A stretch of 32,000 bases of DNA from Candidatus Thorarchaeota archaeon (GTDB taxonomy: Archaea > Asgardarchaeota > Heimdallarchaeia > Hodarchaeales > Hodarchaeaceae), in the NCBI GenBank assembly GCA_048882505.1, contig JBHLRO010000025.1, forward strand, positions 9,772-41,771, given 5' to 3'. Positions 13,763-32,000 of the stretch are shown here, piece by piece. Both the position numbers and the translations under genes were made by a program. How positions within the stretch are numbered: position 1 is the first letter of the stretch; each line of letters opens with the position of its first letter. The notes under the pieces were generated by a model. That model saw nothing but the letters and a program-made list of their open reading frames with translations, was not told the DNA's origin and searched no databases.

Positions 13763-14809
13763 TCATTTTTGGCATAGCACAATTGTTCGAACTCCTTCAC
13801 CTCTTCTCATGACATCAAACGCTTCATTGATTTCCGAAAGAGGGTACTTTCCAGTAACAAGTGGTTTAACCACAATTCTTTTATTTTGAACCAATTTAAT
13901 AATGCGAGGATAGTCAACCGTGCGACATCCCAATGATCCCATGATTTCCATTTCACGAAACATGACTCTTCCTATATCAAAGCCATCCCATCTTTTATGT
14001 GAATACCCTACTGCAACCAATCGTCCTCCAGTCCTTAAGCTGTTGAAGGCCTGTTTCATGGTCACAGGGTTGCCAATGCACTCAAAAGCAACATCTGCAC
14101 CTCCACCAGTAATCTTGCGAATTGCTCCAACGATTGCACGGTCATCCAGATCGGCCGCTGATAAAATCTCAACTGCCCCAAGTTGTTTTGCGATTTCCAG
14201 TTTTTTTGGAATGATGTCCACTGCAATTGCCAATCCGCCAGCCACCTTAATGTTTTGAACCGTGTTTAGGCCTATTCCCCCACATCCGATGACAACAGCC
14301 CAGTCTCCTGGGCGGATCTGTCCACGATTCTTTACCGCATGATATGGAGTGGAAACAGCATCTGATATGATGCAACCCTCTTCTAATGGGATTTCGCCAG
14401 GTAAGGCGAAAATATCTTTGGCTGGGACCATAATCTTTTCAGCAAATCCCCCATCCACATTGGAACCAAAAAACGTTTGATTCGTACAAATGTTCTCACG
14501 ACCAGTCCTACAGTAAAAGCAATTCCCACACGAAATAACCGCAGGAACAAGCACGTGATCTCCTTGTTTAAAAGCGGTGACATCTTCGCTAGTTTCACGA
14601 ACAATTCCTGACATTTCATGTCCCAAAACCAACGGAGGGGATTTACCTGTCGGAACGCCATGATCTAGAAATCCAATATCAGTGTGACAAACCCCACAAG
14701 CCGTTATGTCAATGATTGCTTTTCCTGAAGAGTCACCGAGGTCCGGCGATGGATAGCTTCCATTCAATTTCAAAGGAGCCTTTACCTGTTCAAATATAGC
14801 TGCACGCAT
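13763..14809 (-). CDS. Zn-dependent alcohol dehydrogenase, probably 6-hydroxycyclohex-1-ene-1-carbonyl-CoA dehydrogenase (Had/BamQ-like)
   Basis: 'GVCHTD', 'PLVLGHEMSG', structural Zn 'CGNCFYC...C', 'DAVSTPY', 'GCGGIG'. The 'G-V-x-T...P-L-x-LGHE' and 'PAVISCG' segments resemble recalled Had sequences. Start placed at ATG 14809 (track: 14830). The MDR family call is firm; Had specificity is moderate. Confidence 0.7.
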   Translation of the reverse strand: MRAAIFEQVKAPLKLNGSYPSPDLGDSSGKAIIDITACGVCHTDIGFLDHGVPTGKSPPLVLGHEMSGIVRETSEDVTAFKQGDHVLVPAVISCGNCFYCRTGRENICTNQTFFGSNVDGGFAEKIMVPAKDIFALPGEIPLEEGCIISDAVSTPYHAVKNRGQIRPGDWAVVIGCGGIGLNTVQNIKVAGGLAIAVDIIPKKLEIAKQLGAVEILSAADLDDRAIVGAIRKITGGGADVAFECIGNPVTMKQAFNSLRTGGRLVAVGYSHKRWDGFDIGRVMFREMEIMGSLGCRTVDYPRIIKLVQNKRIVVKPLVTGKYPLSEINEAFDVMRRGEGVRTIVLCQK

Positions 14810-14931
14810 CGGAACCACTTGTTGAAACAAGAAAATCCTGCTGATTTTTAATTGTTCCTGCTAATCTGGTTACATAATAAGTACAGGATTTTACTGAGAT
14901 GGTTTACTCCCGTTTACTCTTCATGCGGCGT

Positions 14932-15603
14932 TTAGAGAAAGACCCCAATTTCGGATAACGATTTTTTCTCTATATTTGGAACCATCGCATCTTCATGGGG
15001 ATATCCTACTGGCATAAGGACATATGGTTTTTCATTGGGAGGTCGATTGAGCAGTGTTTTTAGAACTTTTATGGGTGCCGGAGTATGAGTGACCGTGACC
15101 AGGCCTACATTATGGATCGCCATAATAAGCATCCCTATAGCAATTCCGACGCTTTCCTTGACATAGTAATGCGGGAGTTTTTGCATATTTTCACCAAATG
15201 CATAATCTTGGCGAAAAACTACTATTAGGTAAGGAGCCTCTGTTAAATAAGGTTTTTCCCAATTAGTGGCTAGAGGGGCTAGGGCTTCTCGTTGTGCATC
15301 CGAAATACGGGACTCGTAGAATTCCTTTTCTACTGCTTCTACCGCTACTCGAATTCGGGATTTTATTGAAAGATCGTTAACTACGACGAAGGTCCATGGC
15401 TGTTTATTGGCCCCCGAGGGAGCAGTACCCGCGGTCTTGACAATAGTTTCGATTATTTTTCGGGGTACTGGCTTGGTTGAAAATTTCCTAACAGTTCTCC
15501 GCGTTCGAGCCCATTCGTAGAATTCTGTGGAGCGAAAATCCATTTCATCGGAAGAATAAGTTTTGGGTCTGTATGGGACGAATTCTTTGCTCATTGTAAC
15601 CAA
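14932..15603 (-). CDS. Nitroreductase-superfamily flavoprotein, iodotyrosine deiodinase (IYD)-like
   Basis: 'RRTVRKFS', 'TAPSGANKQPWTFVVV', lid 'EKEFY...TNWEKPYL', 'HYYVKESVGIA', 'VTVTHTP', 'PVGYP'. The start is probably the ATG at 15594. Confidence 0.8.
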   Translation of the reverse strand: MVTMSKEFVPYRPKTYSSDEMDFRSTEFYEWARTRRTVRKFSTKPVPRKIIETIVKTAGTAPSGANKQPWTFVVVNDLSIKSRIRVAVEAVEKEFYESRISDAQREALAPLATNWEKPYLTEAPYLIVVFRQDYAFGENMQKLPHYYVKESVGIAIGMLIMAIHNVGLVTVTHTPAPIKVLKTLLNRPPNEKPYVLMPVGYPHEDAMVPNIEKKSLSEIGVFL

Positions 15604-15829
15604 CTACTTCGTGGTGCCCTTTGGCCAAGAAAATGGTTTTTGGACACCGCTGATAATACCGATAGTACACACAACTGATAATATCTTTATAATCCTTGAG
15701 ATGCTCGCAGCAATGAAATAAACTTTTTAGATCAATGGAATACACGTATACGGGACCTTATCATTCATTAATTTCCAAAGCACATTTCAATTAACATTAA
15801 ATATTACTACCTCAAAATGGCAATTACAT

Positions 15830-16561
15830 ATGTTGTTGGACACGCTGAGCTTCAGAATCGTAAAAGGGGTCGTTTGGACCAAATTTGATGAAGAAATGGG
15901 CCCTGTTCCTGTGGCCTGGGTACCTGATACCCTTTCTGAAGAAATTTTGTTTAGCGTCTCTCTCCGTGGAATGTCTGTCTTCTCAAGTCGTCCTTCCAAC
16001 ATATCGTATGCAAAAATGATTGCTACACTTCCTTTTCCAGAATATGAGTTCTTTTCTATCTCTACAGTCCTTTATGAAGTCTCAGAGTCTCTCAGGGGCG
16101 GATTTGATATAAATCTGGTGACGGTTTTAATCCCCCAACTGATAGTGGAAAATGCATGGCTGGATATACGTCAAATTCAAGGGATTTTTAGGAAGTATTT
16201 TGCTCCCTGGGATGGCAGACCAGTTAACGATAAAGAAAAAATCATCACAGGGGTTGCTTTGGCCATTGATGACATTTTGTGTCGTAAATTCGAGATGATC
16301 GAAGAGGGAGAAAAGGTTAGAGATCAGCTAAACAATTATCTTGAGTCCTACCTTGTAACCTCCCGTGAAGAAAACGATCAACAGCTTATCAAGACACGAG
16401 TAAAAACATTGATTCAATCGTTGGACCGAGTACTAATAGCGGGGGATCATGAACGAATTCAAGAGGCCCTAGACCAACTGAACTATATCTTGAATGAGGG
16501 ATTTGAGGATGAACTAATCATTGCTTACCAGGGTGCCTTTAGCCACTTTTTACAAATATAA
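15830..16561 (+). CDS. Hypothetical protein with N-terminal uDENN/longin-like fold and C-terminal helical region
   Basis: N-terminal beta strand then 'W.KFDEEMGP.P', followed by an alternating alpha/beta pattern typical of uDENN/longin modules. The fold is inferred. Confidence 0.6.
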   Translation: MLLDTLSFRIVKGVVWTKFDEEMGPVPVAWVPDTLSEEILFSVSLRGMSVFSSRPSNISYAKMIATLPFPEYEFFSISTVLYEVSESLRGGFDINLVTVLIPQLIVENAWLDIRQIQGIFRKYFAPWDGRPVNDKEKIITGVALAIDDILCRKFEMIEEGEKVRDQLNNYLESYLVTSREENDQQLIKTRVKTLIQSLDRVLIAGDHERIQEALDQLNYILNEGFEDELIIAYQGAFSHFLQI

Positions 16562-16595: not shown

Positions 16596-17366
16596 TTAAC
16601 GATTCTGCCAAACTGGAGATCTTTTTTCAACAAAGGCCTGTAACCCCTCATTAGCATCCTTGGTTTCCATTAGCTCATGCAGGTATAAGTGTTCGATCCG
16701 ACTCAGAATGTGCATGAATTCAACATGAGTTCCTATTTGGAGCGCTTTCTTCGCATATCGTAAAACGACCGCACTTAAGGACCTAAATCTCTGTAAATAG
16801 TTTTCAAAATCCTGATCGAAGGTGGTAGAGGGAAATACGTGATTTATCAATCCATATTTTAGCGCTTCTTGCGCATTCATTGATTCACCATGCATCACAA
16901 GTTCGTAGGCCATTTTCAGTGGTACCAGGTGCGGTAATAGAACCGTTGCCAGTGGGGGAAAGACACCCACTTTGATTTCTGGCTGTCCGAACTTGGCATT
17001 TTCAGAAGCAATCACAAAATCACAAAATAAGGCAACCTCACACCCCCCTCCCAGAGCTGCCCCCTTAACACTAGCTATCGTGGGACAGGGCAAAGAATAA
17101 AATTGTCTGAAGATTTTGTGGAATTCTTCGAGCATGGTCTTGGCTGTATCTCCCATATGCTCTCCTACATCTACTCCTGCGGAGAATGTCCGCCCTGTGT
17201 GTCCAACGACCAGGGCCTTCAACGAATTGTCCTTGGAAAATTCCTCAATCGCCCGATTGATCTCAACCATCATCGCAATGTTAAGAATGTTAAGTTTTCC
17301 ACTGTTTAATATGATTTTGCCAACGTTATCATTTTTAATTACCTGAATCTGTTCGTAGTTCATCAC
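16596..17366 (-). CDS. dch: Crotonase-family hydratase, probably cyclohexa-1,5-dienecarbonyl-CoA hydratase
   Basis: 'NILNIAMM', 'FSAGVDVGEHM', 'ALGGGCE', 'KFGQPEIKVGVFPP', 'LSAVVLRYA', 'LYLHELMETKDANEGLQAFVEKRSPVWQNR'. The EHM motif and C-terminus match recalled Dch/BamR sequences. Confidence 0.8.
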   Translation of the reverse strand: MMNYEQIQVIKNDNVGKIILNSGKLNILNIAMMVEINRAIEEFSKDNSLKALVVGHTGRTFSAGVDVGEHMGDTAKTMLEEFHKIFRQFYSLPCPTIASVKGAALGGGCEVALFCDFVIASENAKFGQPEIKVGVFPPLATVLLPHLVPLKMAYELVMHGESMNAQEALKYGLINHVFPSTTFDQDFENYLQRFRSLSAVVLRYAKKALQIGTHVEFMHILSRIEHLYLHELMETKDANEGLQAFVEKRSPVWQNR

Positions 17367-17722: not shown

Positions 17723-18979
17723 TTATTCAATCAAAGGAAAATGGCACGCTACCCAATGATTTGAACGCTGCTCTATGAGTTCTGGTTCATTTTCAATGCA
17801 TTTTGAAGGATCCACGATAGGACAACGAGGATGGAATCTGCAACCTGACGGAGGATTAATTGCATCTGGTACCTCCCCATGCGGCAAATCATATTTCTTT
17901 TCTCCAGGAATAGGTGTCGGAACTGCATCTATTAGGGCTCTCGTATACGGGTGGAGCGGATTTCTGAATATGGCCTCGACCTCTCCCATTTCAACGAGTT
18001 TTCCAACATACATTACCCCTATTCGGTCACCAAAATGCCTTGCTGTGGCCAGATCATGGGTTATAAAGAGAATTGAAAGATTATGTGCTAATTGGAGTGA
18101 TTTCAATGAGTCTAGAATACCTGCGCGTAAACTGACATCCAACATACTTGTAGGTTCATCAGCGATTATTAGCTCTGGATTCAATATTAATGCTCTCGCT
18201 ATGGAGGCTCGCTGCAGTTCACCGCCGCTAACTTCATGGGGAAATTTCGTATAATATTGTTGGGAAGGAGTTAAACCGATTTCTTCAAACACCTCCAGGA
18301 TGCCTGAATCAGCAATTTTTCTTCTACGAAACCAAGAATGATAGAAGTAGCTTCCCAAGGCGACAGTGAAAAGGGACACTCCAAAAAGAGCACTAAGGGT
18401 AACTATTGTCGAATCCTGAATAAAAAACACAAGCGTGAGAGCCAAAAGTGAAATTATACTACTTAAAATAAGAAAAAACTCCGAGTATACGGAGTTACGA
18501 TATCTCTTTCTGACCTCGGTGTCCGTAATCCTATTGTGAATTAATAAGGGATGAAGAACTGCATCCCCCAAACGCATACGTGGATTTAATGAGGAAAAAG
18601 GATTTTGAAAGACGACTTGAGATTTTATATTTCCTTTACGGGGTATTAACTCATTGTGTGTAATTTCATTGTTCTTCCACTTGAATTTTCCTGTTGTGGG
18701 AGTCTCTAAACCAACCAATATATTAGCAGTAGTCGTCTTTCCACATCCAGACTCACCAACCAAGCAGAAAATCTCTCCTTTATTGATTGAAAACGTGATA
18801 TCATCAACAGCTTTCACATATGTCTCTTGTCGAGTGAACAGTCTATCTAGAGTTCCATGCTCAACTGGAAAGTATTTTCTAAGGTTAGTTACTTCTATTA
18901 AAGTCTCCTTTTCTTTCTTATCAATAAGACCTGACATTGTCACTCCCTCACTATCTAAAATGGGATTCATAGGATTCAT
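17723..18979 (-). CDS. dppF: Oligopeptide/dipeptide ABC ATPase (OppF/DppF) with an internal two-TM insertion
   Basis: Walker A 'GESGCGKT', Q-loop 'VFQNP', signature 'VSGGELQR', Walker B 'IIADEP', H-loop 'ITHDL', C-terminal 'GCRFHPRC...C...ACH'. Hydrophobic insert at aa ~165-216. Confidence 0.92.
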   Translation of the reverse strand: MNPMNPILDSEGVTMSGLIDKKEKETLIEVTNLRKYFPVEHGTLDRLFTRQETYVKAVDDITFSINKGEIFCLVGESGCGKTTTANILVGLETPTTGKFKWKNNEITHNELIPRKGNIKSQVVFQNPFSSLNPRMRLGDAVLHPLLIHNRITDTEVRKRYRNSVYSEFFLILSSIISLLALTLVFFIQDSTIVTLSALFGVSLFTVALGSYFYHSWFRRRKIADSGILEVFEEIGLTPSQQYYTKFPHEVSGGELQRASIARALILNPELIIADEPTSMLDVSLRAGILDSLKSLQLAHNLSILFITHDLATARHFGDRIGVMYVGKLVEMGEVEAIFRNPLHPYTRALIDAVPTPIPGEKKYDLPHGEVPDAINPPSGCRFHPRCPIVDPSKCIENEPELIEQRSNHWVACHFPLIE

Positions 18980-19949
18980 GAAACATCAGACATTTGGCAA
19001 TATGTTGACTCTTTGACCCTATCATTATTAGCTCTGGGCTTTCTTTTCTGCAGACATCTTTTACAAAAGTGCACCGATCGGCAAAGGAACATCCTTTCGG
19101 GGGATTTCTTAGATCGGGAGGATGCCCGGGAATAAAACTAAGCTGCTTCTTTTCTTTCTCTTTGACATTGGGAATCGCCTTGATCAAGGCCTGTGTGTAA
19201 GGATGAGCTGGGCTTTCAAAGATAGTAAAGGTATCGCCTACCTCAACTATTTGACCGGCATACATTATGGCAACTCGATTTGTGATTTCCGCTACTACCC
19301 CCAAATCATGTGTAATGTAAATAACTGTCAATTTGTACTCTCTAATGATATCTTTTAGTAGCTGAAGGAGTCTTGCCTGAACCAAAACATCAAGTGCTGT
19401 GGTAGGTTCATCAGCAATAATCATTTTTGGATTCAAAATCAAGGTTAACGCTATTACAATTCGTTGTTGCATTCCGCCCGAAAATTGAAAGGGATTGTCT
19501 TTCAAGCGTGTGGGAGGGATTTCCAAACGGTGTAACAAAGATTTCACTTCTTCCCATTTTTCCTCAGTCCACAGCTCGTGTACTTTCAGAGTATCGATAA
19601 AATGATCTGAAACCTTCTGAAGAGGATTCAGGGCATTCTGAGAAGCCTGAAACACCATAGATATATCAGAACCACGAAGTTTTTCCATTTCCTCCTCGGA
19701 TAGCTGTACCAGATCTTTCTTATTATATAGAATTCTCCCTGAACGAATAACCCCGCCCTGAAGTAGGCCAAGGATTGAATAGCCCAGTGTGCTTTTTCCA
19801 CATCCAGATTCTCCCACCAGGCCTAAAACTTCTCCTTTGTCAATGGTGAGAGAGACATTATCTACCGCTCTCACATTTCCGTCAAGTGTGGGATATTCAA
19901 CGACCAGGTTCTGGATTTCCAATAACGGAGGTTTATCGCTATTTCGCAT
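18951..19949 (-). CDS. dppD: Oligopeptide/dipeptide ABC ATPase (OppD/DppD)
   Basis: 'GESGCGKS', 'FSGGMQQR', 'IIADEPTTALD', 'ITHDL', C-terminal Cys cluster 'GCSFADRC...C...C'. Start placed at ATG 19949 (track: 19997). Confidence 0.93.
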   Translation of the reverse strand: MRNSDKPPLLEIQNLVVEYPTLDGNVRAVDNVSLTIDKGEVLGLVGESGCGKSTLGYSILGLLQGGVIRSGRILYNKKDLVQLSEEEMEKLRGSDISMVFQASQNALNPLQKVSDHFIDTLKVHELWTEEKWEEVKSLLHRLEIPPTRLKDNPFQFSGGMQQRIVIALTLILNPKMIIADEPTTALDVLVQARLLQLLKDIIREYKLTVIYITHDLGVVAEITNRVAIMYAGQIVEVGDTFTIFESPAHPYTQALIKAIPNVKEKEKKQLSFIPGHPPDLRNPPKGCSFADRCTFVKDVCRKESPELIMIGSKSQHIAKCLMFHESYESHFR

Positions 19950-20889
19950 TATTTCGTCTACTGATGAGGGGATTGAACTTATCATTGAGTGCATCACCTA
20001 TAAGTGAAAAAGCAAAGGAGAGAACAAATATCATTAGCCCAGGGAAGAAAATCAGCCAAGGATAGGTGCGAACCCTTGAAAGAGATCTGTTTTCATATAC
20101 ATCATAACCCCAATCAGCTGTTGGAGGTTGTATACCGAGTCCTAGGAATGCTAAACCAGCATTTGTAAGAATTGCATCAGTCATATTGAAGGGAATGATC
20201 GCAATGGTAGAGGCCAAAATATTGGGAGTGATATATCTCAGCAAAATGGTTAACCTACCTGCTCCCATAGTTTTCGCAGCGTCAACGTAACCTTCTTTTT
20301 TTATTTGTAAAACTTGAGCCCGAACCACCCGAAAATACGTCGGAATGTAAACGACCGCAGTTGCAAAAGATACAGCGGCAACTGTTTTTAAGATACCGAA
20401 AGCAGCAAGGTAAATAGCGAAAACTATGGCAAATAATAAGGAAGGAAAAGAATAGATCGCATCTGCTATTAGAGTCAGTAGACGGTCCATTTTTCCCCCA
20501 AAGTATCCCGAAAGGACACCCAAAGGTATCCCAAATATATATGCCAGAATAGTTCCTGAAAACGCCATTAATAACGCTATTCTGGCCCCGTATATTACCC
20601 GTGCGAGTACATCGTAACCCAAGAGATTAGTTCCAAAAGGATGTTCTAAAGAAGGGGGGGCAAAACGTAAACTTGGAAACCGTTCATCGTAGGAATAAGG
20701 GGAAATGACATCTGCAAATAAGGCCATAACCAAAATCATAACAAAGAGAAATATCCCCAAAGTTAACGTTTTATTATATTTTATAGATCTAATAAGGCCG
20801 ATAAACGAGGATTTAACCGATAGACCTTGTTTTTTCGGTGTTAAAGGGGGAGTGACCAATTTTGTTTCACCAAAAAGATTTTCGATCAA
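19939..20889 (-). CDS. dppC: ABC transporter permease (DppC/OppC)
   Basis: 'PPSLEHPFGT..LGYDVLARVIYGARI', EAA loop 'YVDAAKTMGA', 'LAFLGLG', 'IGDALND'. Confidence 0.93.
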   Translation of the reverse strand: MIENLFGETKLVTPPLTPKKQGLSVKSSFIGLIRSIKYNKTLTLGIFLFVMILVMALFADVISPYSYDERFPSLRFAPPSLEHPFGTNLLGYDVLARVIYGARIALLMAFSGTILAYIFGIPLGVLSGYFGGKMDRLLTLIADAIYSFPSLLFAIVFAIYLAAFGILKTVAAVSFATAVVYIPTYFRVVRAQVLQIKKEGYVDAAKTMGAGRLTILLRYITPNILASTIAIIPFNMTDAILTNAGLAFLGLGIQPPTADWGYDVYENRSLSRVRTYPWLIFFPGLMIFVLSFAFSLIGDALNDKFNPLISRRNNAK

Positions 20890-22115
20890 TATGTTATTCT
20901 TGGATCAACTAGTGCATAGTAAATATCACTAATCAAGCTTAACAGACTTACAATAAGAACTGTGACAATTACTACGCCTTGGACTGCAGGATAGTCCTTT
21001 TCTGCAATTGCAAGAAACAAATATCTTCCTAAACCAGGTATATTGAACGTTGTTTCTGTTAGAATTGCACCAGCTAGCAATAGAGCAAACTGAAGACTTA
21101 TCAATCCGATCGTAGGTACCACCGCGTTTTTCAAAGTGTATCGATATATAACAGTTTTTTCGGGGATTCCACGTGATCGTGCGAAGTGAACGTAATCTTG
21201 CTCTAATTGAAAAATCATGTTTGTTCGAACTTGTCGTGCGATTACTGCAGCAATCAGCATTCCTAAAGCTAGACCAGGTAGAATCAGGTGAATGATTATA
21301 TCATAGGTTAAATCGGGGCGCCCACTTAATATGGTATCAATTATCCAAATATTTGTATAATGAGTGAATTCCCCGGTTGCTCCAGCGCTTATCGGGGATA
21401 GTGCGGGGAGAGGAAAAATCATAAACGAAATTATACCGATAACTATCACAAAAAATGAGACTCCAAATAGTTTGTTGGGTTGAACGGAAATACCAGCAAT
21501 CTTGGTTGTATCTCTCTTGTTAATAATCCTTAGAAAAACACCGACTAATAAACTGAAGACTCCCATTATTATGATTATTATAGCTATAGGGCGTAAAAGC
21601 GGACCTAGAAAGCCAGATCTTGAAAACATCATTTGAAGTAAAATTCCTACCAGGAATATAGGGATCGAATAATCACCTATTGTGTACAAGCGAATAGAGT
21701 GGTCCTCTGCTTTGTCTCTTTTAGCACCAGAAACACCACCTAATATAATCCCTAATGGCACACCTATCAAAGTTCCGAAAGTTCCCAACGTCAAAGTGAG
21801 GCCAAATGCCTGTTGAATTTCCGCGGTTACCAAACCATTTGTTCTGAAAGACGTTCCAAAATCAAATGTTACGGCACGAACCAAGAATTCAAAATACTGT
21901 TCATGTAGCGGTTTATTCAGCCCAAATCTCTCCGAAATAAGTTCTACTTGATCGGGTGTCAGTTTCGGATTCAAAACAAGAGCAGGATTTGCCCCAGGTA
22001 GTACACGTAACAAGAAGAAGACGATGGATATTAATAGCCAAATCATAGGAATAAGAAGCACTATCCTTGTAAAAATAAAGGAACGTAATGAGCCCAATTT
22101 TATCAGAATCTCCAA
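20886..22115 (-). CDS. dppB: ABC transporter permease (DppB/OppB) with an extra two-TM insertion
   Basis: 'RVLPGANP', 'GLNKPLHEQY', 'DFGTS', 'HLILP', EAA loop 'DYVHFARSRG', 'GLGRYL', 'DYPAVQG', 'DPRI'. Extra hydrophobic segment at aa ~166-234. Confidence 0.92.
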   Translation of the reverse strand: MEILIKLGSLRSFIFTRIVLLIPMIWLLISIVFFLLRVLPGANPALVLNPKLTPDQVELISERFGLNKPLHEQYFEFLVRAVTFDFGTSFRTNGLVTAEIQQAFGLTLTLGTFGTLIGVPLGIILGGVSGAKRDKAEDHSIRLYTIGDYSIPIFLVGILLQMMFSRSGFLGPLLRPIAIIIIIMGVFSLLVGVFLRIINKRDTTKIAGISVQPNKLFGVSFFVIVIGIISFMIFPLPALSPISAGATGEFTHYTNIWIIDTILSGRPDLTYDIIIHLILPGLALGMLIAAVIARQVRTNMIFQLEQDYVHFARSRGIPEKTVIYRYTLKNAVVPTIGLISLQFALLLAGAILTETTFNIPGLGRYLFLAIAEKDYPAVQGVVIVTVLIVSLLSLISDIYYALVDPRITY

Positions 22116-22320
22116 TTTGTCGTGATTAACCCAATGAAATTCGGTTGGAACGTGTTGGATGAAAGAAACTTTTGCTGATTAGCAAACTGATCATCTTAAA
22201 AATACATATTAGGGAACCCCGTCATCAGTATGAAGTTACGATGGTGTCAGATCCAGTACCATTGGTGTTTACAGATCCGAGTTTTAAGCCTATGTAGTAA
22301 TCAGTCTCACTTCGGCAGAT

Positions 22321-22334
22321 TATATAAAATTTGG
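22321..22334 (-). promoter_or_regulatory. Candidate BRE/TATA for an internal dppB promoter
   Basis: The minus strand reads CCAAATTTTATATA, between the SBP terminator and dppB. Confidence 0.3.
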
Positions 22335-22367
22335 TAGAAATGCAGATCGATGATTATATTTAGGTAT

Positions 22368-22408
22368 GAGAAGAAAAAAAAAAGAAGGAGGGATTGGAAG
22401 AAGAAAGA
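22368..22408 (-). terminator. T-rich terminator after the solute-binding protein gene
   Basis: Purine tract on the + strand (A10 at 22374-22383), which is a pyrimidine/T10 tract on the coding strand immediately after the stop at 22412. Confidence 0.55.
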
Positions 22409-22411
22409 TGT

Positions 22412-24498: not shown

Positions 24499-25005
24499 TC
24501 AGGTAGTCCATTTCGCTATTAGGGCTGGAAAATTTTCGGCAGCGCTTCGGCGTTTCCGCTGGTTAACTTTTTCTGCTTCAATATAAAGGAGTGCTTCAGG
24601 TTCGCAGGTTTTGACGCACTGAGGATCACCTCCACAGAGATCACATTTTATGACTTTCTTTTTTCCCCTTTCAGAGGTGATCGCGACCGCTCCAAATGGA
24701 CAGTCTCTGATACATAGTTTACAGTTTACACACAATTCGTAATCAATAACCAGCGCTTGGGTAATTTCGTCTCGAGATATCGCTTCCCGTTTGCGGCAGG
24801 CGTCCTGACAAGGTGCAGGGGTACACTGATGGCAGAAAATCGGAAGATAACCCCTATCGGCAGAAATTTTAAGGATATGGATTCGTGAAAGAGAGGGATT
24901 TATCACATTCTCATTATAAAGCGAACAAATAGATTCACAGAGGCGACAACCAGTACATTTCTCAGGTTCGACGAAAAGGATTTTTTGCATTCTTCTATTC
25001 ATCAT
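24499..25005 (-). CDS. 4Fe-4S dicluster electron-transfer subunit of AOR
   Basis: Four Cys groups: 'CTGCRLCESIC', 'CHQCTPAPCQDAC', 'CVNCKLCIRDCP', 'KCDLCGGDPQCVKTC'. Directly downstream of AOR. Confidence 0.9.
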   Translation of the reverse strand: MMNRRMQKILFVEPEKCTGCRLCESICSLYNENVINPSLSRIHILKISADRGYLPIFCHQCTPAPCQDACRKREAISRDEITQALVIDYELCVNCKLCIRDCPFGAVAITSERGKKKVIKCDLCGGDPQCVKTCEPEALLYIEAEKVNQRKRRSAAENFPALIAKWTT

Positions 25006-25032
25006 CTTCCTTTATGGGTAAATTTGGATTGA

Positions 25033-26952
25033 TTAGATTATGTAGGTTGGTTCTTGATCCAAAGAGAGCTGTTTCAGTGTGTTCGGTGTGGGAATTCCCT
25101 GATCATTCCATCCATGAAGTCCGTAATACTCATCAAGCATCGTGTTAAATTTCGAACGATCAATCACCTTGCCTTTCACGAGTGGAAATCCCAGCTGCGT
25201 AGGTTCAGTAAAAAACCTTTCAGGTAACGTATCGTCTCCCCTCGAGAACCCCTCTCGCAAATTAAAAAGCCTCTCGATTGTATAAATGCGTTCTCCAGCT
25301 TCCATTAACTGGGTTTTCGACAAATCAAGCCCTGCGGCGTATTTAAGCAATTTGGAAAACTCTTCCCATTTAGGAGAATTGACACTGAGAAACACTGTCT
25401 GGAATTTACAGATTCCCAAGGAATCTGTAATCGCATAGAGTAGTTCTTGCCACCATACCATGCGGCTTTTCCCCTCATAAGATGTGTAATCTGACGATAC
25501 AGGTCCCCCGTAAATTTCTTTTAGAAGATTCTCAGGCAATCCATATAGATCTATTGCTGGCCTACTACGGAGGTGGTCAGCTCCCCGTGTGGCTGTCGCA
25601 ATTCCCAGTGCAAAACTCGGTGTCGGACGTTCATCACTGTGCAAACTACTTAGTCCCTTGACCTGGATTGCGTAACGATCTGAATTTTGACCTATTTCCT
25701 TGATTGCGGAAGGAAAACCTTTAGCCAAGACATCTCCCAGACCTTCTCGGTATGCGATTCGGCGGATCATCTCAAGCATGGCTTCCTCATTTCCCCAAGT
25801 GAGTTCTATACCGTCTGCCATTTTTTTATTCAGTATTCCCTTTTCATAAAGTTCAAAAGCCCACGAAAGTATTCCCCCAGTTTCAAGGGTATCCAAACCA
25901 TACTGATTTACAAGATGATTTGCCACTAGGACTGTATCAAGTTGTTTTACATCCATCATTGTCCCAAACGCCCCCAGAGAGGTATATTCTGGCCCCTCAC
26001 CTTTGATTATACCGTATCCCTTCCTTTCTACTGAGTAGCGATGTCTGCAGGCGATCTGACATCCATAACAGGCTGTCATCCCAGTGGTGAATTTATCCAT
26101 ATTTTCTGGTTCAAGATCCTCTCCGTCTTCAAGCTTATTCAGCTGGAAGTTTTTTGTCCTGATGAGGCCGGTTGTGTTGGTATTGCTGTAAATAATCATG
26201 GTACCCCATCGTGATTGCGCACGAGCCCATCGTGAGTTCATGACTTTCTCATTCATTTCGGTACAATATTTGAGGAGTTCCTTGGGGTGAACAAATTCAA
26301 CACTGTTCGTTCCTCTAGCAGCTATCGCCTTAAGGTTCTTAGAACCCATTACTGCCCCCATCCCTGTTCTTCCAGCTGCGCTTTTCATTCCCGTTCTTAC
26401 GTTCGCAAATCGGACTTTATTCTCCCCAGCGACACCGATTACTAGAGCCTGGATTTCCTCATCTTCATTCTCCGTACGGATTTTATTTTGGGCTTCAAAG
26501 GTATCCATTCCCCACAGGTGGGCAGCATCTCTTAACTCGATTTCTCCATCATTCAAGAAAACATATCGTGGACTATTCGCTTTTCCTCGAATAACCAGGT
26601 GATCAAATCCCGCAAACTTCATTTCGGGTCCGAAAAATCCTCCTATACTAGAGTCTCCAATTCCCCCTGTGATCGGGGATTTTGCAGAAATTTGACTTCG
26701 GCCTGCGCCCAAGGCTGGAATACCCGTAAGCAGTCCAGCACCAACCAAAAGCACATTTTCAGGTCCCAATGGATCTATTTTGGGAGGTAGATGATTGTAA
26801 AGAAGGTACATATTGATCCCCCGTCCACCTACATACTTTTTTCGGATCCCTTTAGGGATTTGACCTATTGAAATCTTCTCCGTGGATAGGTCAATATAAG
26901 CAATTTTACGGTTCCAGACCATTAATCCACCTCGATAGTCATTCTCAATCAT
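25033..26952 (-). CDS. aor: Tungsten-dependent aldehyde:ferredoxin oxidoreductase family protein (AOR/WOR)
   Basis: 'KSPITG', 'GFDHLVI.G', 'AAGRTGMGAVMGSKNLKAI', 'CYGCQIAC', 'EGPEY', 'GLDT', 'RGADH', 'GICKF', 'DDTLPERF', 'YY..HGW'. An alternative start at ATG 26922 has a GAGGTG SD. Confidence 0.93.
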   Translation of the reverse strand: MIENDYRGGLMVWNRKIAYIDLSTEKISIGQIPKGIRKKYVGGRGINMYLLYNHLPPKIDPLGPENVLLVGAGLLTGIPALGAGRSQISAKSPITGGIGDSSIGGFFGPEMKFAGFDHLVIRGKANSPRYVFLNDGEIELRDAAHLWGMDTFEAQNKIRTENEDEEIQALVIGVAGENKVRFANVRTGMKSAAGRTGMGAVMGSKNLKAIAARGTNSVEFVHPKELLKYCTEMNEKVMNSRWARAQSRWGTMIIYSNTNTTGLIRTKNFQLNKLEDGEDLEPENMDKFTTGMTACYGCQIACRHRYSVERKGYGIIKGEGPEYTSLGAFGTMMDVKQLDTVLVANHLVNQYGLDTLETGGILSWAFELYEKGILNKKMADGIELTWGNEEAMLEMIRRIAYREGLGDVLAKGFPSAIKEIGQNSDRYAIQVKGLSSLHSDERPTPSFALGIATATRGADHLRSRPAIDLYGLPENLLKEIYGGPVSSDYTSYEGKSRMVWWQELLYAITDSLGICKFQTVFLSVNSPKWEEFSKLLKYAAGLDLSKTQLMEAGERIYTIERLFNLREGFSRGDDTLPERFFTEPTQLGFPLVKGKVIDRSKFNTMLDEYYGLHGWNDQGIPTPNTLKQLSLDQEPTYII

Positions 26953-27097
26953 CTAAGCCTCTAATTTTCGGTTGGTCGGAACGGGGCCAAGATATTCTGT
27001 AGTTGGTACCGCAAAAAGGACAGGTAGCGTGATCGGAATCGATTTCTTCGATCGGAAATCGTTTCAAACAGTTCAAACATCTAACGGTGTTCGCCAT
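26945..27097 (-). CDS. Small Zn-ribbon protein (50 aa), missing from the ORF track
   Basis: Manual translation: MANTVRCLNCLKRFPIEEIDSDHATCPFCGTNYRISWPRSDQPKIRGLDD*. Has CxxC-x15-CPxC. Starts 6 nt after the MoaD-like stop, and its stop overlaps the AOR ATG. Confidence 0.75.
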   Translation of the reverse strand: MANTVRCLNCLKRFPIEEIDSDHATCPFCGTNYRISWPRSDQPKIRGLDD

Positions 27098-27103
27098 TTT
27101 CCT

Positions 27104-27412
27104 TCACCCTTTAGTTTTGCTAAGAATAATTCCTCCTCCGATTGGTACCGTAAAAACAACAATATCCTCGTGTTGTAACGTGGCCTGCGGTGAGCGAATA
27201 CCTTTACCATTAACCATTATGAGCGCATCATTCGAGATTTGCTCTGTGTCATAATCTATGAGTCCGTTAAACTCCGATCCATATTCATCAGCTAATCTTT
27301 TGATGATTCCTCCTATTGTGGTCTGACCTGGCTTAATCTGTTCAACTATCTCCCTTTTTTTGGTCGCTGTACGGTAATGACCATGAAATATTATTTTTAT
27401 TTGGCTTTCCAT
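27104..27412 (-). CDS. moaD: MoaD/ThiS/SAMP-like ubiquitin-fold protein with an 8-aa extension after the GG motif
   Basis: Beta-grasp pattern 'IKIIFHG.YR...K...E', 'IMVNG', 'TLQHEDIVVFTVPIGGG' followed by IILSKTKG*. First gene of the AOR operon. Confidence 0.8.
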   Translation of the reverse strand: MESQIKIIFHGHYRTATKKREIVEQIKPGQTTIGGIIKRLADEYGSEFNGLIDYDTEQISNDALIMVNGKGIRSPQATLQHEDIVVFTVPIGGGIILSKTKG

Positions 27413-27490: not shown

Positions 27491-29263
27491 CTAAGTCCGA
27501 ATATGGCGGTCATAGTTAAGAATATAGGTGAGCTCTGGTTCGGTTAACCCATAAATCTTCGCCAAAAATCTATCAACTCGGTCCAATAGAAACCTACTTT
27601 TGGACGATTTAAACTCCCCCACTCGCCCGCGGTTAGGATCGAAAACCGCCAATTGAATGTCATTCACATTTTTGGCGAGTCTAAGTATCCTTAATTTATT
27701 GCATTCCAAAGTTTTTTCTTCTGGAAAGGGAAATGGAGTTATTAGAGACCTTGGTAAGTCACGATTATTTCCAAAAGCCGTCCAGAAAAGATAATATAGC
27801 GAGGAATTGAGGATAAGTAGACCAAAATCACGTTGAACTTCTGTTATAAATCCAAGCTGCTTTATCTTAGTACTACGATACGGAAACTCGTGTAATGCAT
27901 GAATGAAGTAGCCTGCAGATTGACGATATTCCAATATGTGCCTTCCAGGACTCATAACATCTCCAAACACCCGAAATTTAGCTGAAAAATCCCTCAAAGT
28001 CATCAAAATATGTCGTTTCACCTTGTGTCCGATTTTGGGCAGCCGCGTCCGCTTATCTCCTGCGCATGACCCGAGTGTTTTTCCTAAACACAATCCTTCG
28101 GTTGATTCATAAGTAATATCGTGAAAGATGGAAGCACGTTGTCCATATGTAAAGCGATGATTAGTACTTGTTCGAATTGGGACTGACGGACCTTTCTCCC
28201 CGATAACAAGAACCACGCGTTCTTCATTGTCAGGGAATAATCGGGAAGGTCGGGTCCCAAAATAAGCCAGGTTAAATTTTCCCGCAGTTCTCATAAGAGT
28301 TCGAACCGAAGTCATTGAGCGGTTGGTAGCTACTGCTCCAGCTAGGATATTACCGATATTGCCGTTCTCTTTCAAGAGATCAAGTTCTCTCTCTAGAAAG
28401 TAACCACAGATATCGCCACAGCCAGCTACCTTATACTTCTCCAAAAAGCCATTGTGATTGCTTTTCATCTTTCTTGGGTTACCAAATGGAGGATTACCGA
28501 TAATTATGTCGAATCCACCTCCCTGATCTTTAAAAACTTCAGGAAAAGCCTCAAACCAATGAAATCCTTGATAGCTGACAATCTGATCTCCATAATGCTC
28601 CTGTTTGTCTATGTCTCTCTCAAAAATATGTCCACACAAGGAATTTCCCACCCGTAGGTTGTCTGTGAGAGACAATTTGATCCAATCAGTTCTCAGGTGC
28701 TCCGAATCATTTATCCATAATTTTAGCCGCAACCTAGCGTAATCTATCGCTTTAGAATTAAAATCAACCCCATATAGATTCTTGGTGACAATTTGGTTTT
28801 TGATTTGAGTTGGTTTGATGGCTAAATTAAGTTCTTTAACGCTCAAATCCCAGATGTCGTATAAAACGTCGGCCGCCGCTATTAAAAACGCACCTGATCC
28901 ACAGGCATTATCACAAACCCTTATTTGGCCAACACATTCTTCCAAAATGGTTATCATAGTTTCGATTGAAGCTTTGGTAAAAAGATCAGGTATATTTTGA
29001 AGAATATTGACATCTGTGATCTTATTCTTAAGAAAAATTTTGTTTGCTTGTTTCAGAATCCACGAATAAATCGTATTCTTGGCTATATAATCTGTAACGT
29101 CGCGGGGAGTGTAGTAAGTACCCGAATTTTTCCGGTCAACATCAGTCATGAACTCTTCAGGAAGCTTCGCAAGATAGTTATCTAGTTCACGATGAGCATC
29201 CTTTCCCTTAAATTCAAAACCACGGTCAGGTAGCAAATATTTCACCGGTTCATTACATTTCAT
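27491..29263 (-). CDS. Eco57I/type IIL-like N6-adenine DNA methyltransferase with TRD, no obvious nuclease domain
   Basis: 'SGTYYTP', motif I 'VCDNACGSGAFL', 'NLYGVD', 'NLRVGNSL', 'FHW...FPEVF', motif IV 'FDIIIGNPPF'. C-terminal TRD-like region 'LILNSSL', 'IYGLT'. Confidence 0.88.
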   Translation of the reverse strand: MKCNEPVKYLLPDRGFEFKGKDAHRELDNYLAKLPEEFMTDVDRKNSGTYYTPRDVTDYIAKNTIYSWILKQANKIFLKNKITDVNILQNIPDLFTKASIETMITILEECVGQIRVCDNACGSGAFLIAAADVLYDIWDLSVKELNLAIKPTQIKNQIVTKNLYGVDFNSKAIDYARLRLKLWINDSEHLRTDWIKLSLTDNLRVGNSLCGHIFERDIDKQEHYGDQIVSYQGFHWFEAFPEVFKDQGGGFDIIIGNPPFGNPRKMKSNHNGFLEKYKVAGCGDICGYFLERELDLLKENGNIGNILAGAVATNRSMTSVRTLMRTAGKFNLAYFGTRPSRLFPDNEERVVLVIGEKGPSVPIRTSTNHRFTYGQRASIFHDITYESTEGLCLGKTLGSCAGDKRTRLPKIGHKVKRHILMTLRDFSAKFRVFGDVMSPGRHILEYRQSAGYFIHALHEFPYRSTKIKQLGFITEVQRDFGLLILNSSLYYLFWTAFGNNRDLPRSLITPFPFPEEKTLECNKLRILRLAKNVNDIQLAVFDPNRGRVGEFKSSKSRFLLDRVDRFLAKIYGLTEPELTYILNYDRHIRT

Positions 29264-29487: not shown

Positions 29488-29538
29488 AGTAAATACACAG
29501 TAGCCACTGGGTATGACCTAACCCCGAGGTTCCAAATT

Positions 29539-29793
29539 ATGCCCGAAGCACCCACATCGGCCGCTAAACAAGATGAAAATGAAGGACAATTATTACCAGA
29601 TACGGATGAAGGACGATCTCAAGGTTTAGTTGAGGATCTTCCGTCTGAATTCAAAGTTTTTGGATATGAAATGCTAGATCGTGAGGTGAAAAAAAGTGGA
29701 AACTCCGGGAGAGTATATTTACCGAAAGATTGGATTGGAACCCGTGTTAGAATTATCCGTGCATCCAAGCTCATTGAAAAAGGTGATGAGTAA
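29539..29793 (+). CDS. DUF2080-family small protein (AbrB-like swapped-hairpin motif)
   Basis: 'EVKKSGNSGRVYLPKDWIGTRVRIIR' matches the recalled DUF2080 pattern. Acidic, disordered N-terminus. Confidence 0.75.
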   Translation: MPEAPTSAAKQDENEGQLLPDTDEGRSQGLVEDLPSEFKVFGYEMLDREVKKSGNSGRVYLPKDWIGTRVRIIRASKLIEKGDE

Positions 29794-30289
29794 TCTTGGA
29801 TTAAGCTCCAATTGGAGTCAGGATGCGATGGATTTAACAAAAGAAGTTAAGATCAGAAAGATGACCGAAACAGATATTATTCCCATCGCAACCTTGGAGA
29901 GGCGTATTGCTGGAATATCCAGGCCCAATACGTGGGAAGCAGAGATTCGACATTACCTTGGGGATCCTGAAAGCATTTGCTTGGTTGCAGTGGTAGATGG
30001 TAAGGGTACTGACGAAGTTGTGGGTTTCATGATTGGATCGATTCATGCTTGGTTATTTGGGGTAGAGAGGGGAGGATGGATCGAGGTTCTAGGAGTTGAC
30101 CCAGAACATACCGCAAAAGGAATTGGTAAGAGGCTCGGAGAAGAGATGTTCAAGGAATTCAAACAACGTGAAGTAAAGGTGGTTCACACGTCAGTTGACT
30201 GGTTTCGGTCAACAGACATTCTGGAATTTTTCAAGACCTTGGGAATGGAAAAAAGCGATTTCATCACGCTAAGAAAAGATCTCCAGTAA
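29786..30289 (+). CDS. GNAT-family N-acetyltransferase
   Basis: 'IRKMTE.D', 'VVGFMIG', 'WIEVLGVDPEH.AKGIGKRL' (acetyl-CoA motif A), 'FFKTLG'. The start is ATG 29786 (overlapping the DUF2080 end) or 29828; the track's 29696 start is unlikely. Confidence 0.88.
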   Translation: MSNLGLSSNWSQDAMDLTKEVKIRKMTETDIIPIATLERRIAGISRPNTWEAEIRHYLGDPESICLVAVVDGKGTDEVVGFMIGSIHAWLFGVERGGWIEVLGVDPEHTAKGIGKRLGEEMFKEFKQREVKVVHTSVDWFRSTDILEFFKTLGMEKSDFITLRKDLQ

Positions 30290-30321
30290 TAGAAGCTAGT
30301 TATAGATAATGAGGCAAAAAG

Positions 30322-31548
30322 ATGGCAGAACAGACTTTGGCACCAACTAGGTTGGAAACAGGTCAATTTTTTCCTTTTTCCGAGCAAATGTCGTTAGAAG
30401 ATCTGCTACGAGTTGCTCGCGAATGGATTGAAGACCTTACATTCCAGCATCATCTAGAATGGCGTGAAAAACATAAAACGCCCATCGTCGGGACTTTTCC
30501 AGTATATGTTCCCAAGGAGCTTATTAGCGCCTTTAATATGCTTCCAGTGGCTCTACAAGGTGGGGGGGAATTTCTTGAAATTTCACACGCCGAAGCTTAT
30601 CTTGGTTCATTTATCTGCTCAATTCCAAAGAGTACCTTGGAGTTAGCGTTAGCACATAATGTAAAAGGGTTTGATGGTTTTATTTCACCGTATATATGCG
30701 ATGTAGCCCGTAATCTGGCCGGAGTTTTTGAACGAAATTTTCCACAGATGACAAGTCATATGCTACATTACCCACAAAACATCAATTCCCGTGGAGCAGT
30801 TCCGTACTTGATAGCGGAGTATAACCGACTGATTGCAAAGTTTGAAAAGATAACAGGCAACAAATTTGACCCCGAATCTCTGAGAACACAGATAAAGGTG
30901 TCTAATAGGTGTCAAAAAGCTCTGAAAGAACTTTTGACATATCGTAACTCCTATCCCGGCCGGATGACCATCGATGAGCTTTACCTTATACTACGTTTGG
31001 GGAGTCTCCTTCCTCATCAGGATTATTTGAACGTTTTAAACCATACACTTTCAGAAATTAAACAAAAAGAGAAGGAAAGGCGAGATTTCGTACCGATTAT
31101 TGTGATGGGACCATTCTGCGAACAACCGACCTTGGAGATCGTAAAACTCATTGAAGATGTCGGCTTTTTTGTTGTGGACTTTGATTTTCAAATCGGACAG
31201 AGGTTTATAACGGAGCCAATTTCAGAAGAACTTGATCCACTAGAAGCCCTGGCTACTGCGTATGTGAAACACGCATCAATGCTGCCCACACGACATAATC
31301 CTCAGGGTCGAGCCCATGAAATCCTTACTCGGTTAAAAGAAAGCAGTCCGACCCCCCAAGCTGTGATTTTCCTTACGACAAAGTTTTGCGAGCCAGCCCT
31401 CGAGGATTTTGTACTCTATAAAGAAGCTTTAGAAAAAGAGAGAAATCAAATCCCCTATTTACATGTTGAATATGAGGAACGTTCCTCTAATTTTGAAGAT
31501 GTACGTTTACAGTTTGAAACTTTGTTCGAATCCATACTTTTTGATTAA
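30322..31548 (+). CDS. bcrC: Class I benzoyl-CoA reductase subunit C (2-hydroxyacyl-CoA dehydratase family)
   Basis: 'EDL.F...W', 'PVYVP.E.I.A..MLP...GGG..LEI.H..AY..S.IC.IP.ST.EL.L', 'ICDV.RNL.G', 'PQN', 'FCEQP.L' and 'FCEPAL' all match recalled BcrC consensus. Three candidate 4Fe-4S Cys ligands. Confidence 0.82.
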   Translation: MAEQTLAPTRLETGQFFPFSEQMSLEDLLRVAREWIEDLTFQHHLEWREKHKTPIVGTFPVYVPKELISAFNMLPVALQGGGEFLEISHAEAYLGSFICSIPKSTLELALAHNVKGFDGFISPYICDVARNLAGVFERNFPQMTSHMLHYPQNINSRGAVPYLIAEYNRLIAKFEKITGNKFDPESLRTQIKVSNRCQKALKELLTYRNSYPGRMTIDELYLILRLGSLLPHQDYLNVLNHTLSEIKQKEKERRDFVPIIVMGPFCEQPTLEIVKLIEDVGFFVVDFDFQIGQRFITEPISEELDPLEALATAYVKHASMLPTRHNPQGRAHEILTRLKESSPTPQAVIFLTTKFCEPALEDFVLYKEALEKERNQIPYLHVEYEERSSNFEDVRLQFETLFESILFD

Positions 31549-31569
31549 ACCTCAGGTGATGAAATTAAA

Positions 31570-32000
31570 ATGACTACTACCCTAGATCCAATTGTATCAT
31601 CTCCCCTTCCTGATTTAGAATTTCCAGAGCAAATCGAATTGGGTGCTGGGAGAAATACACAACGGTGGTTAAATAAACACTATTACAGTTATCTAACTGA
31701 ACTTAAGCAGAATAAGCAAAATAGGCCAGTCGCCTACATGTTCGTTGGGGGGAACTTAGTCGAACTGCTGCGCACAATGGGATTTGAATGCGTCTATCCC
31801 GAGATTACCGCATTAGCAACAGCTATTAAACATAACTCATTGGATCCTATCCTAAAAGCGGAGGAATTGGGGTATGGGCTCGACATATGTGGTTATGTCA
31901 AGACAGATATCGGTCTTTCAGTTGTGGGGCCTGGCAAGACTTCTTTCACAGATATACCAAAACCTGATCTCCTAGTATGCAACTTTTCTGGTTGTCTTGT
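31570..32000 (+). CDS. bcrB: Class I benzoyl-CoA reductase subunit B, 3'-truncated by the window edge (not in the ORF track)
   Basis: Manual translation from ATG 31570: MTTTLDP...VAYMFVGGNLVELL...YPEITA...KAEELGYGLDICGYVKTDIG...PKPDLLVCNFSGCL. Matches recalled BcrB motifs (FVxGNLxEL, DxCxYVKxDIG, PDLL....GC). Lies 21 nt after bcrC, in C-B order. Confidence 0.8.
   Translation, partial: MTTTLDPIVSSPLPDLEFPEQIELGAGRNTQRWLNKHYYSYLTELKQNKQNRPVAYMFVGGNLVELLRTMGFECVYPEITALATAIKHNSLDPILKAEELGYGLDICGYVKTDIGLSVVGPGKTSFTDIPKPDLLVCNFSGCL

Follow-up and report, generated by a model that had tools for sequence, protein, structure and literature searches.

We have analyzed a stretch of 32,000 nucleotides (the window) from the genome of a Candidatus Thorarchaeota archaeon (G000), covering positions 9772-41771 of contig JBHLRO010000025.1 (C25:9772-41771) and finishing, on its right side, at the end of the contig. 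Our analysis indicates, with a probability that we would put at roughly 0.78, that the window corresponds to the left two thirds of a supercluster of ~55–60 kb for the degradation of benzoyl-CoA in a Heimdallarchaeial (Asgard) archaeon, by a pathway that would depend on a four-subunit reductase of the Bcr/MBR type (MBR stands for 3-methylbenzoyl-CoA reductase). The Asgard origin, already proposed in an earlier reading of the bare DNA (the sequence-only reading), agrees with the finding of a relative of the same genus that is a 'Candidatus Heimdallarchaeota' metagenome-assembled genome. All the open reading frames (ORFs) of the window were scanned with Pfam and NCBIfam. Besides, 40 relatives were searched and the genes were mapped on the loci fetched; the 21 sister species of the same genus (g1) will be called congeners. 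What was directly observed is the identity of the genes, their placement in families, the adjacency of the contigs and the conservation of synteny. The genes of the window that would take part in the pathway are:

30322-31548, + strand: BcrC/MbdN-like gamma subunit, 408 amino acids (aa); Pfam HGD-D 228 bits, best NCBIfam match TIGR02263 (BcrC)
31570-31998, + strand: BcrB/MbdO-like beta subunit, N-terminal 143 aa, cut by the contig end; best match TIGR02260 (BcrB)
16596-17366, - strand: Dch-like crotonase (enoyl-CoA hydratase), candidate cyclohexa-1,5-diene-1-carbonyl-CoA hydratase; best match TIGR03189
13763-14830, - strand: Had-like Zn-dehydrogenase (Zn-ADH); best match TIGR03201
12582-13733, - strand: SCP-x-type thiolase (NF004720, 490 bits), putatively of the lower pathway, beta-oxidation of 3-hydroxypimeloyl-CoA
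11349-12572, - strand: DUF35 (OB/Zn-ribbon)-SDR fusion; Pfam zf-ChsH2, OB_ChsH2_C and adh_short
7512-8759, + strand: acyl-CoA dehydrogenase (ACAD), glutaryl-CoA dehydrogenase-like; best NCBIfam match NF045552 'glutaryl-CoA dehydrogenase Acd'

Subtype of the reductase

The two reductase genes, separated by 21 nt, are both on the + strand, gamma then beta, and code for adjacent core subunits of the HGD-D family. This is the C-B order described in the sequence-only reading, which also placed the enzyme closer to the Thauera-type Bcr than to the Bzd type, and the scores go in the same direction. The window C subunit reached 246 bits with BcrC (TIGR02263), 156 with HadC, 127 with the double-cubane reductase and 79 with BzdN, while the full-length B ortholog found in the congener G016 (443 aa) gave 312 bits with BcrB (TIGR02260), 167 with HadB and 81 with BzdO. 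The cut-offs of the Bzd models (TIGR03190 and TIGR03191) are about 450 and those of HadC and HadB 700–750; the scores support neither a Bzd-type nor a HadBC/HgdAB assignment. Among the PDB sequences, the best matches were MbdN and MbdO of MBR (238 and 232 bits), with HadBC at 114 and 134 and BzdNO at 77.

The phylogeny of the C subunit was based on 150 representatives at 50% clustering, with a quick tree of 129 rows and a careful IQ-TREE tree of 50 rows. We classified 20 representatives and the congeners' paralog by NCBIfam, defining as reference proteins those that passed the equivalog cut-offs. In the 50-row tree the window C subunit is found inside a clade of 31 rows (ultrafast bootstrap, UFBoot, 100; SH-aLRT 99), together with two proteins at or over the BcrC cut-off, P0130 (518 bits) and P0140 (421 bits). 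All the proteins with HadC as best match are outside this Bcr clade and the Bzd-type proteins are more distant; the grouping with HgdAB/HadBC, that the sequence-only reading had named as the competing one, does not appear. Within the Bcr clade there is an archaeal sub-clade (99/94), apart from the canonical clade, that comprises Heimdallarchaeia (LC_2, LC_3, Hodarchaeales and this genus) and Thermoplasmata. The window C subunit has the three universal cluster cysteines, C99, C126 and C356, plus a fourth one, C266, which was present in the 17 Bcr-superclade rows checked (17/17) and missing in three out of four HadC-best proteins and in the two Bzd-type proteins checked. As for the B subunit, two of its three conserved cysteines (107 and 142) fall within the 143-aa fragment of the window. 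The data support that the reductase is of the Bcr/MBR (Thauera) type, and neither of the Bzd type nor a 2-hydroxyacyl-CoA dehydratase. It belongs to an archaeal Bcr-type clade whose function we infer.

The likeness to the Thauera-type reductases, i.e., BcrCBAD of Thauera aromatica, BadDEFG of Rhodopseudomonas palustris and MbdONQP (PDB 9g87/9gai), extends to the C-B-A-D order (see below), to the two HGD-D core subunits with two different BcrAD_BadFG ATPases, to the presence of had and oah nearby, to the best hidden Markov model and PDB matches, to the same well supported clade and to the Cys ligands, including the clade-specific fourth Cys. However, the identity is only ~35–40%, the scores do not reach the equivalog cut-offs, the archaeal members form a clade of their own (99/94) and there is no ferredoxin gene beside the operon. 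The Bzd type is the one used by the archaeon Ferroglobus placidus. With BzdNOPQ (Azoarcus/Aromatoleum, PDB 8s02) the window enzyme has in common the enzyme class, the position in the cluster and the dch, had and oah genes that the Bzd type serves in the congeners. The difference is in the subunits themselves, with their 79–81 bits on the Bzd models and 18–26% identity to the congeners' BzdN/O, and in that this genome has no Bzd genes. HadBC/HgdAB with their activator HadI/HgdC (PDB 3o3m, 1hux, 4eht) are members of the same superfamily (HGD-D core, BcrAD_BadFG ATPase) and share the three conserved cluster Cys, but they are a sister group and not the same clade, mostly without the fourth Cys, and have a single homodimeric activator gene versus the two ATPase genes of the Bcr-type operon.

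Annotation pipelines disagree about these proteins. NCBI names the orthologs '2-hydroxyacyl-CoA dehydratase subunit D' and JGI names them BcrC, and for Heimdallarchaeota LC_2 and LC_3 the name 'Benzoyl-CoA reductase subunit C' is already in use in the NCBI records. If the NCBI pipeline name were right (Pfam sees HGD-D only), the C/B pair would be a dehydratase of the HgdAB/HadBC/FldBC type for the fermentation of amino acids, something that would fit with the Opp peptide transporter, the aldehyde:ferredoxin oxidoreductase (AOR) and the aminotransferases found in the window. We consider this very improbable, since the HadB/HadC scores are about half of the Bcr scores and the HadC-best proteins are excluded in the tree with 100/99 support. 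Besides, the orthologous operons contain two different in-line ATPases and not one separate activator, the locus occupies the position of bzdNOPQ, and the Opp operon is a lineage-specific insertion.

The complete operon in a congener and the proposed downstream steps

The sequence-only reading proposed to look for bcrA and bcrD downstream, and they are directly next in the operon of the congener G016 ('Candidatus Heimdallarchaeota archaeon TM2S.58', locus L007, same genus), the C subunit of which is 91% identical to that of the window. The order in G016 is C(408)-B(443)-ATPase(272)-ATPase(265), with sizes in aa, and the B fragment of the window shares 97.9% identity with the N-terminal 143 aa of its 443-aa B subunit. 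The best PDB match of the first ATPase was MbdQ (316 bits) and the second matched MbdQ and MbdP about equally; the identity between the two ATPases is 37%, and the two [4Fe-4S]-bridging Cys are retained in both. Two different in-line ATPase genes are a hallmark of class I reductases, whereas dehydratases use one detached activator. We found two in-line BcrAD_BadFG ATPase genes in G016, G022, G030, G026 and one Thermoplasmata locus. The C-B-A-D set appears as well in family f2 (L008/L037) and family f5 (L031, L032), and the Thermoplasmata locus has the same four genes in the order B-A-D-C.

Locus L007 of G016 aligns to the last 4.9 kb of C25 (88% nucleotide identity) and to the first 2 kb of another contig of the genome, C4 (85%), in the same orientation. 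The G016 contig thus bridges the end of C25 and the start of C4, and therefore the gap between both contigs is of about 7.3 kb. On the C4 side, the assembly break falls within a repetitive FN3-domain giant gene. This gene, located between the bcr operon and the genes of C4 (L007 9745-14205; C4:3-1973), codes for a protein of ~1486 aa that contains a DOMON domain and 11 or more fibronectin-III repeats, and it is with these repeats that the break at the start of C4 coincides. In run X1, the likely source sample, we found a 1412-nt contig that corresponds to L007 4322-5732, nearly the whole bcrB, and is ~91% identical to G016, and short contigs with parts of bcrA (92%) and bcrD (87.5%). The congener and these short metagenome contigs are supportive of the bcrA, bcrD and rest of bcrB of G000 being located in the gap. 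Only two BcrAD_BadFG genes are contained in the G000 assembly, on C1 and C4, and they are 28–38% identical.

The pathway that we propose takes its substrate, flux direction and electron donor from family membership and gene context. The four-subunit ATP-dependent Bcr/MBR-type reductase would act on benzoyl-CoA or a near analogue of it and yield cyclohexa-1,5-diene-1-carbonyl-CoA, consuming reduced ferredoxin and ATP; its genes would be in the order C-B-A-D, with C and the start of B in the window and the rest in the assembly gap. The dienoyl-CoA would then be hydrated by the Dch-like crotonase (16596-17366) and the 6-hydroxy product oxidised by the Had-like Zn-dehydrogenase (13763-14830). Both proteins had been recognized in the sequence-only reading, and they are by far the best, and the only good, Dch and Had candidates of the genome: the crotonase has 186 bits on TIGR03189 (next locus in the genome, 80) and the dehydrogenase 223 bits on TIGR03201 (next locus, 97). 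The ring would be opened to 3-hydroxypimeloyl-CoA by Oah. The sequence-only reading had contemplated a genome lacking oah and bcrAD, but a true oah is found outside the window, on the adjoining contig (C4:15276-16394), with 570 bits on TIGR03200, over the cut-off of 464 that none of 14 control genomes passed. A thiolase gene directly follows (oah plus thiolase, C4:15276-17605). For the lower, beta-oxidation-like part we propose the DUF35-SDR fusion, as a candidate 3-hydroxyacyl-CoA dehydrogenase carrying a thiolase scaffold, together with both thiolases and the ACAD similar to glutaryl-CoA dehydrogenase, whose best model is the non-decarboxylating glutaryl-CoA dehydrogenase NF045552 (356 bits, below the cut-off of 470). 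These thiolase, SDR and ACAD genes are present as the sequence-only reading said, but not within the part of the window to which it assigned them, which started at 13763; all of them are to the left of this point. The DUF35 and SDR domains are fused in this genus (11349-12572) and correspond to two adjacent genes in family f2 (L008 8501-9684).

The genome also contains a haem-copper oxidase subunit I gene (C17:44215-45567, 456 bits), and the organism may be able to respire oxygen. This fits a class I enzyme, because ATP-dependent class I reductases are typically found in facultative anaerobes. No narG was found in the genome, which is 94.5% complete.

Several points weigh against the reading of a benzoyl-CoA pathway with a Bcr/MBR-type reductase. 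The C subunit (246 vs. 421 bits) and the B ortholog (312 vs. 487) are under the NCBIfam equivalog cut-offs of TIGR02263 and TIGR02260, and so are the Dch-like and Had-like proteins (cut-offs of 292.5 for TIGR03189 and 338.65 for TIGR03201); because of this, the names of these four pathway-specific proteins rest on best match, phylogeny and gene context. The substrate of the archaeal Bcr-type clade could be an analogue of benzoyl-CoA. No benzoate-CoA ligase over the TIGR02262 cut-off of 375 was found, neither in the window, as the sequence-only reading had said, nor in the rest of the genome, where the best of nine AMP-ligase loci has 221 bits. No dedicated ferredoxin or ferredoxin-reducing module was found adjoining bcrCBAD, and an 843-aa flavoprotein that accompanies the Bzd loci of the congeners is missing from G000. 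By tblastn, the rest of bcrB, bcrA and bcrD were not found in the G000 assembly, and the X1 fragments could partly stem from co-occurring strains, a G016-like strain being present in X1 too.

Some of these data would also fit a class I aryl-CoA reductase acting on a substituted substrate (methyl-, halo- or hydroxy-benzoyl-CoA), in the way of 3-methylbenzoyl-CoA reductase, with its product entering a modified downstream route. Among solved structures, the nearest one is that of MBR (MbdN/O/Q) and not that of a benzoyl-CoA reductase proper, the alpha subunit, with 272 aa, is about as short as MbdQ (269 aa), and a nitroreductase-family gene is found between had and dch only in the two genomes with the Bcr type; the BcrC/BcrB scores below the equivalog cut-offs and the archaeal clade apart from the canonical one go in the same direction. 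However, as the PDB has no canonical BcrCBAD structure, sampling explains part of the proximity to MBR. The oah gene scores as a full equivalog, and had, the thiolases and oah are orthologous (~80% identity) to those that serve the true Bzd-type reductase of the congeners. On balance we regard a substituted substrate as unlikely. We give even less credit to the idea of a decaying, non-functional remnant or a binning or assembly chimera, in an organism that would not be an aromatics degrader. The cluster is interrupted by the Opp, methyltransferase and nitroreductase insertions, and no ligase is over the cut-off, but the ORFs are all intact up to the contig end, the C subunit and Had are 91% and 93% identical between G000 and G016, without stops, the same supercluster is found in closed congeners (G009), and the congener contig bridges C25 and C4.

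Conserved gene order and exchange of reductase types in the genus

Coming back to benzoyl-CoA degradation as the preferred reading, we have examined the gene order in the relatives. In the congeners the usual one is bzdN-type reductase, GNAT, MoaD, AOR, polyferredoxin, a 515-aa CCG Fe-S protein, dch, had, thiolase, DUF35-SDR, ACAD (not always), oah and thiolase. Three inspected loci contain the series dch-had-thiolase-DUF35/SDR-ACAD-oah-thiolase, with the ACAD between DUF35-SDR and oah, and a fourth one is the same without ACAD. The dch orthologs adjoin had, with oah a few kb off, in several inspected congener loci, and a thiolase comes after had in every one of them; in family f2 it comes before bcrC. 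The oah gene is present in 14 of the 21 congeners, and the MoaD-like gene is kept in the loci inspected. The downstream had, thiolases and oah are ~80% identical to the congener orthologs serving a Bzd-type reductase, and the supercluster is found also in closed single-contig congeners, e.g., G009. The other genes located in this part of the window are:

14932-15603, - strand: nitroreductase-family gene (Pfam Nitroreductase); best match BluB-like, weak
15830-16561, + strand: gene without assignment, between had and dch
17723-24067, - strand: Opp/Dpp-type peptide ABC transporter, five genes (Pfam)
24499-25005, - strand: polyferredoxin, accessory module with AOR
25033-26952, - strand: tungsten-type AOR (Pfam AFOR_N/AFOR_C)
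27104-27412, - strand: MoaD/ThiS-like small protein beside AOR (Pfam ThiS)
27491-29263, - strand: Eco57I-type DNA methyltransferase, between the MoaD-like gene and GNAT (Pfam Eco57I/N6_Mtase)
29696-30289, + strand: GNAT acetyltransferase, in the same orientation as bcrC and 32 nt upstream of it (Pfam Acetyltransf_1)

Other genes (Opp/Dpp, polyferredoxin and AOR, MoaD-like, methyltransferase and GNAT), accessory or unrelated to the pathway, fill ~60% of positions 13763-32000, and part of this material consists of lineage-specific insertions. The Opp/Dpp transporter is a lineage-specific insertion outside the pathway: in the G000/G016 lineage its operon occupies the place of the 515-aa CCG/Fe-S protein of the congeners. 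The nitroreductase and the gene without assignment between had and dch were found only in G000 and G016 (L038), while in most other inspected congener loci dch and had are adjacent. The methyltransferase insertion is in G016 (L007) and missing from the other inspected congener loci.

Beyond the genus, family f5 has a Had homolog as the direct neighbour of bcrC. In the Thermoplasmata bcr cluster, the genes that come after bcrC are first a Dch-like and then a Had-like one; a canonical bacterial locus has the order had (415 bits)-oah-bcrC-bcrB. Instead of true Oah, the clusters of f5, f2 and Thermoplasmata have another crotonase, MenB/BadI/Oah-like and ~30% identical to Oah, that may be an alternative ring-opening hydrolase. 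It scores about equally on all three models, ~185–210 bits, always under the cut-off, and in f5 the next genes code for a fused family-I CoA-transferase and for an SDR. Its locations are:

L031 7372-8349: MenB/BadI/Oah-like crotonase
L032 5208-6185: MenB/BadI/Oah-like crotonase
L008 3089-4033: MenB/BadI/Oah-like crotonase
L049 5980-7089: MenB/BadI/Oah-like crotonase

The comparison within the genus indicated a further pattern. A true bzdN (~490 bits vs. a cut-off of 454) is found in 13 of the 21 congeners, and in five inspected loci it is immediately after GNAT. In four inspected loci a bzdNOPQ-like set of four genes is at the same site as the bcr genes, just after the same GNAT gene, and where the loci extend far enough bzdN is followed by BzdO, two ATPases and the 843-aa multi-cluster flavoprotein. 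The BcrC-like gene appears only in G016 among the 21 congeners, besides G000, and in these two genomes neither Bzd homologs nor the 843-aa flavoprotein were found. The Bzd and Bcr subtypes are mutually exclusive at the same position in this sample of the genus. Since the site is the same and only G000 and G016 have the Bcr type, one class I subtype must have replaced the other in place, and the shared position with mutual exclusion argues strongly, from context, for a role of the Bcr-type enzyme in the same pathway. As to the direction of the swap, the Had tree places G000 and G016 next to two Bzd-type species with SH-aLRT of only 90, and the thiolase tree gives no resolution. In the literature that we searched, no description of a Bzd/Bcr replacement within a genus was found.

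The 843-aa protein has 2Fe-2S, several 4Fe-4S, GltD-like Fer4_20 and FAD/NAD domains, and is a candidate for ferredoxin-reducing partner of the Bzd-type enzymes. It is located after bzdNOPQ at the following positions:

L045 5367-7898: 843-aa Fe-S flavoprotein
L041 5724-8276: 843-aa Fe-S flavoprotein
L042 7240-9765: 843-aa Fe-S flavoprotein

A more speculative proposal, about which we are rather doubtful, is that the Bcr-type enzymes of Heimdallarchaeia and Thermoplasmata might be a distinct third lineage of ATP-dependent aryl-CoA reductases, with a substrate range or a coupling to the electron donor unlike those of Bcr and Bzd, that would have displaced the resident Bzd-type enzyme at the same site while dch, had and oah were kept.

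Accessory genes and significance

The GNAT gene is immediately upstream of the reductase operon, no matter if Bzd or Bcr (window 29696-30289; L035, L036, L041-L045). Its ortholog, 53–59% identical, is directly upstream of bzdN in the inspected congener loci and near bcrC in family f2. In Rhodopseudomonas palustris, GNATs act on the bad system, and the GNAT described here may regulate the pathway by acetylation. The module of AOR, polyferredoxin and MoaD-like protein is kept beside GNAT and the reductase in the genus and in family f2 (window 24499-27412; L033, L035, L036, L044, L008). Its role might be the oxidation of aromatic aldehydes to the corresponding acids, or else the provision of reduced ferredoxin. 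We also considered the AOR as a class II reductase (BamB) and rejected this option: its nearest PDB entry is 1AOR, with 375 bits, the match to BamB (4z3w) reaches 273 and is split over three stretches, and the protein is an ordinary aldehyde oxidoreductase.

The left part of the window contains, in order, CstA, DUF2148, two ArsA/Get3-like ATPases, an aminotransferase and an SDR. The two ArsA/Get3-like ATPase genes are in tandem at 2314-4355 (332 and 340 aa). Between the ACAD and the DUF35-SDR fusion there are a gene without assignment and a Cys/Met pyridoxal phosphate enzyme. Elsewhere in the genome and in the congeners we have detected other members of the HGD-D family. One is a 'minimal' unit of one HGD-D protein (best match HadB, 204 bits), one ATPase and a PaaY-like protein with gamma-carbonic-anhydrase fold, kept downstream of the reductase in G019, G020 and G016 and without second core subunit:

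C4:6039-8793 (L017): 'minimal' HGD-D unit
L041 10483-13178: 'minimal' HGD-D unit
L042 11203-13913: 'minimal' HGD-D unit

A further HGD-D pair (382 and 432 aa) is located at C9:73477-75908, without adjacent ATPase, and a solitary BcrAD_BadFG ATPase at C1:146335-147087. The two together may be a dehydratase with a detached activator.

Benzoyl-CoA pathway clusters have been reported for Hermodarchaeota, Lokiarchaeota and Heimdallarchaeota, and of the last group three genomes were counted as Bcr-positive (Zhang et al., 2021; PMC8163825). The novelty that the sequence-only reading attributed to an Asgard Bcr-type enzyme is weaker for this reason, although the accessory genes that it mentioned are indeed present. 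The Hermodarchaeota cluster, with dch and had, was treated as one of the bzd kind, for which bcrN, bcrO and bcrQ trees were built (PMC8163825), whereas the genome studied here has the Bcr type. In the Thorarchaeota bins bcr was present without dch, had and oah (PMC8072921), while here there are candidates for all three. Like in those reports (PMC8163825, PMC8072921), the class I reductase, with or without dch, had and oah, comes from metagenomes.

For carbon derived from lignin and pollutants, a major sink in sediments is the degradation of aromatic rings without oxygen, and the case for Asgard archaea taking part in it has been based so far on gene lists alone. The locus described here is coherent and largely complete, more so than bare 'bcr hits', with a four-subunit Bcr type, Dch and Had candidates, a true Oah and lower-pathway genes in one conserved supercluster that is found in species across the genus. 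The chemistry of the pathway as known is unchanged by these results, and Bcr genes were already known in Heimdallarchaeota, so the in-place swap of subtypes is the one observation that we would call moderately new. The exchange of Bzd and Bcr types in sister species provides natural pairs for the comparison of subtypes. If the displacement by a third lineage suggested above were true, this would be a natural 'module swap', with subtypes interchangeable in one pathway, and oxidase-bearing Asgard archaea would resemble facultatively anaerobic aromatic degraders.

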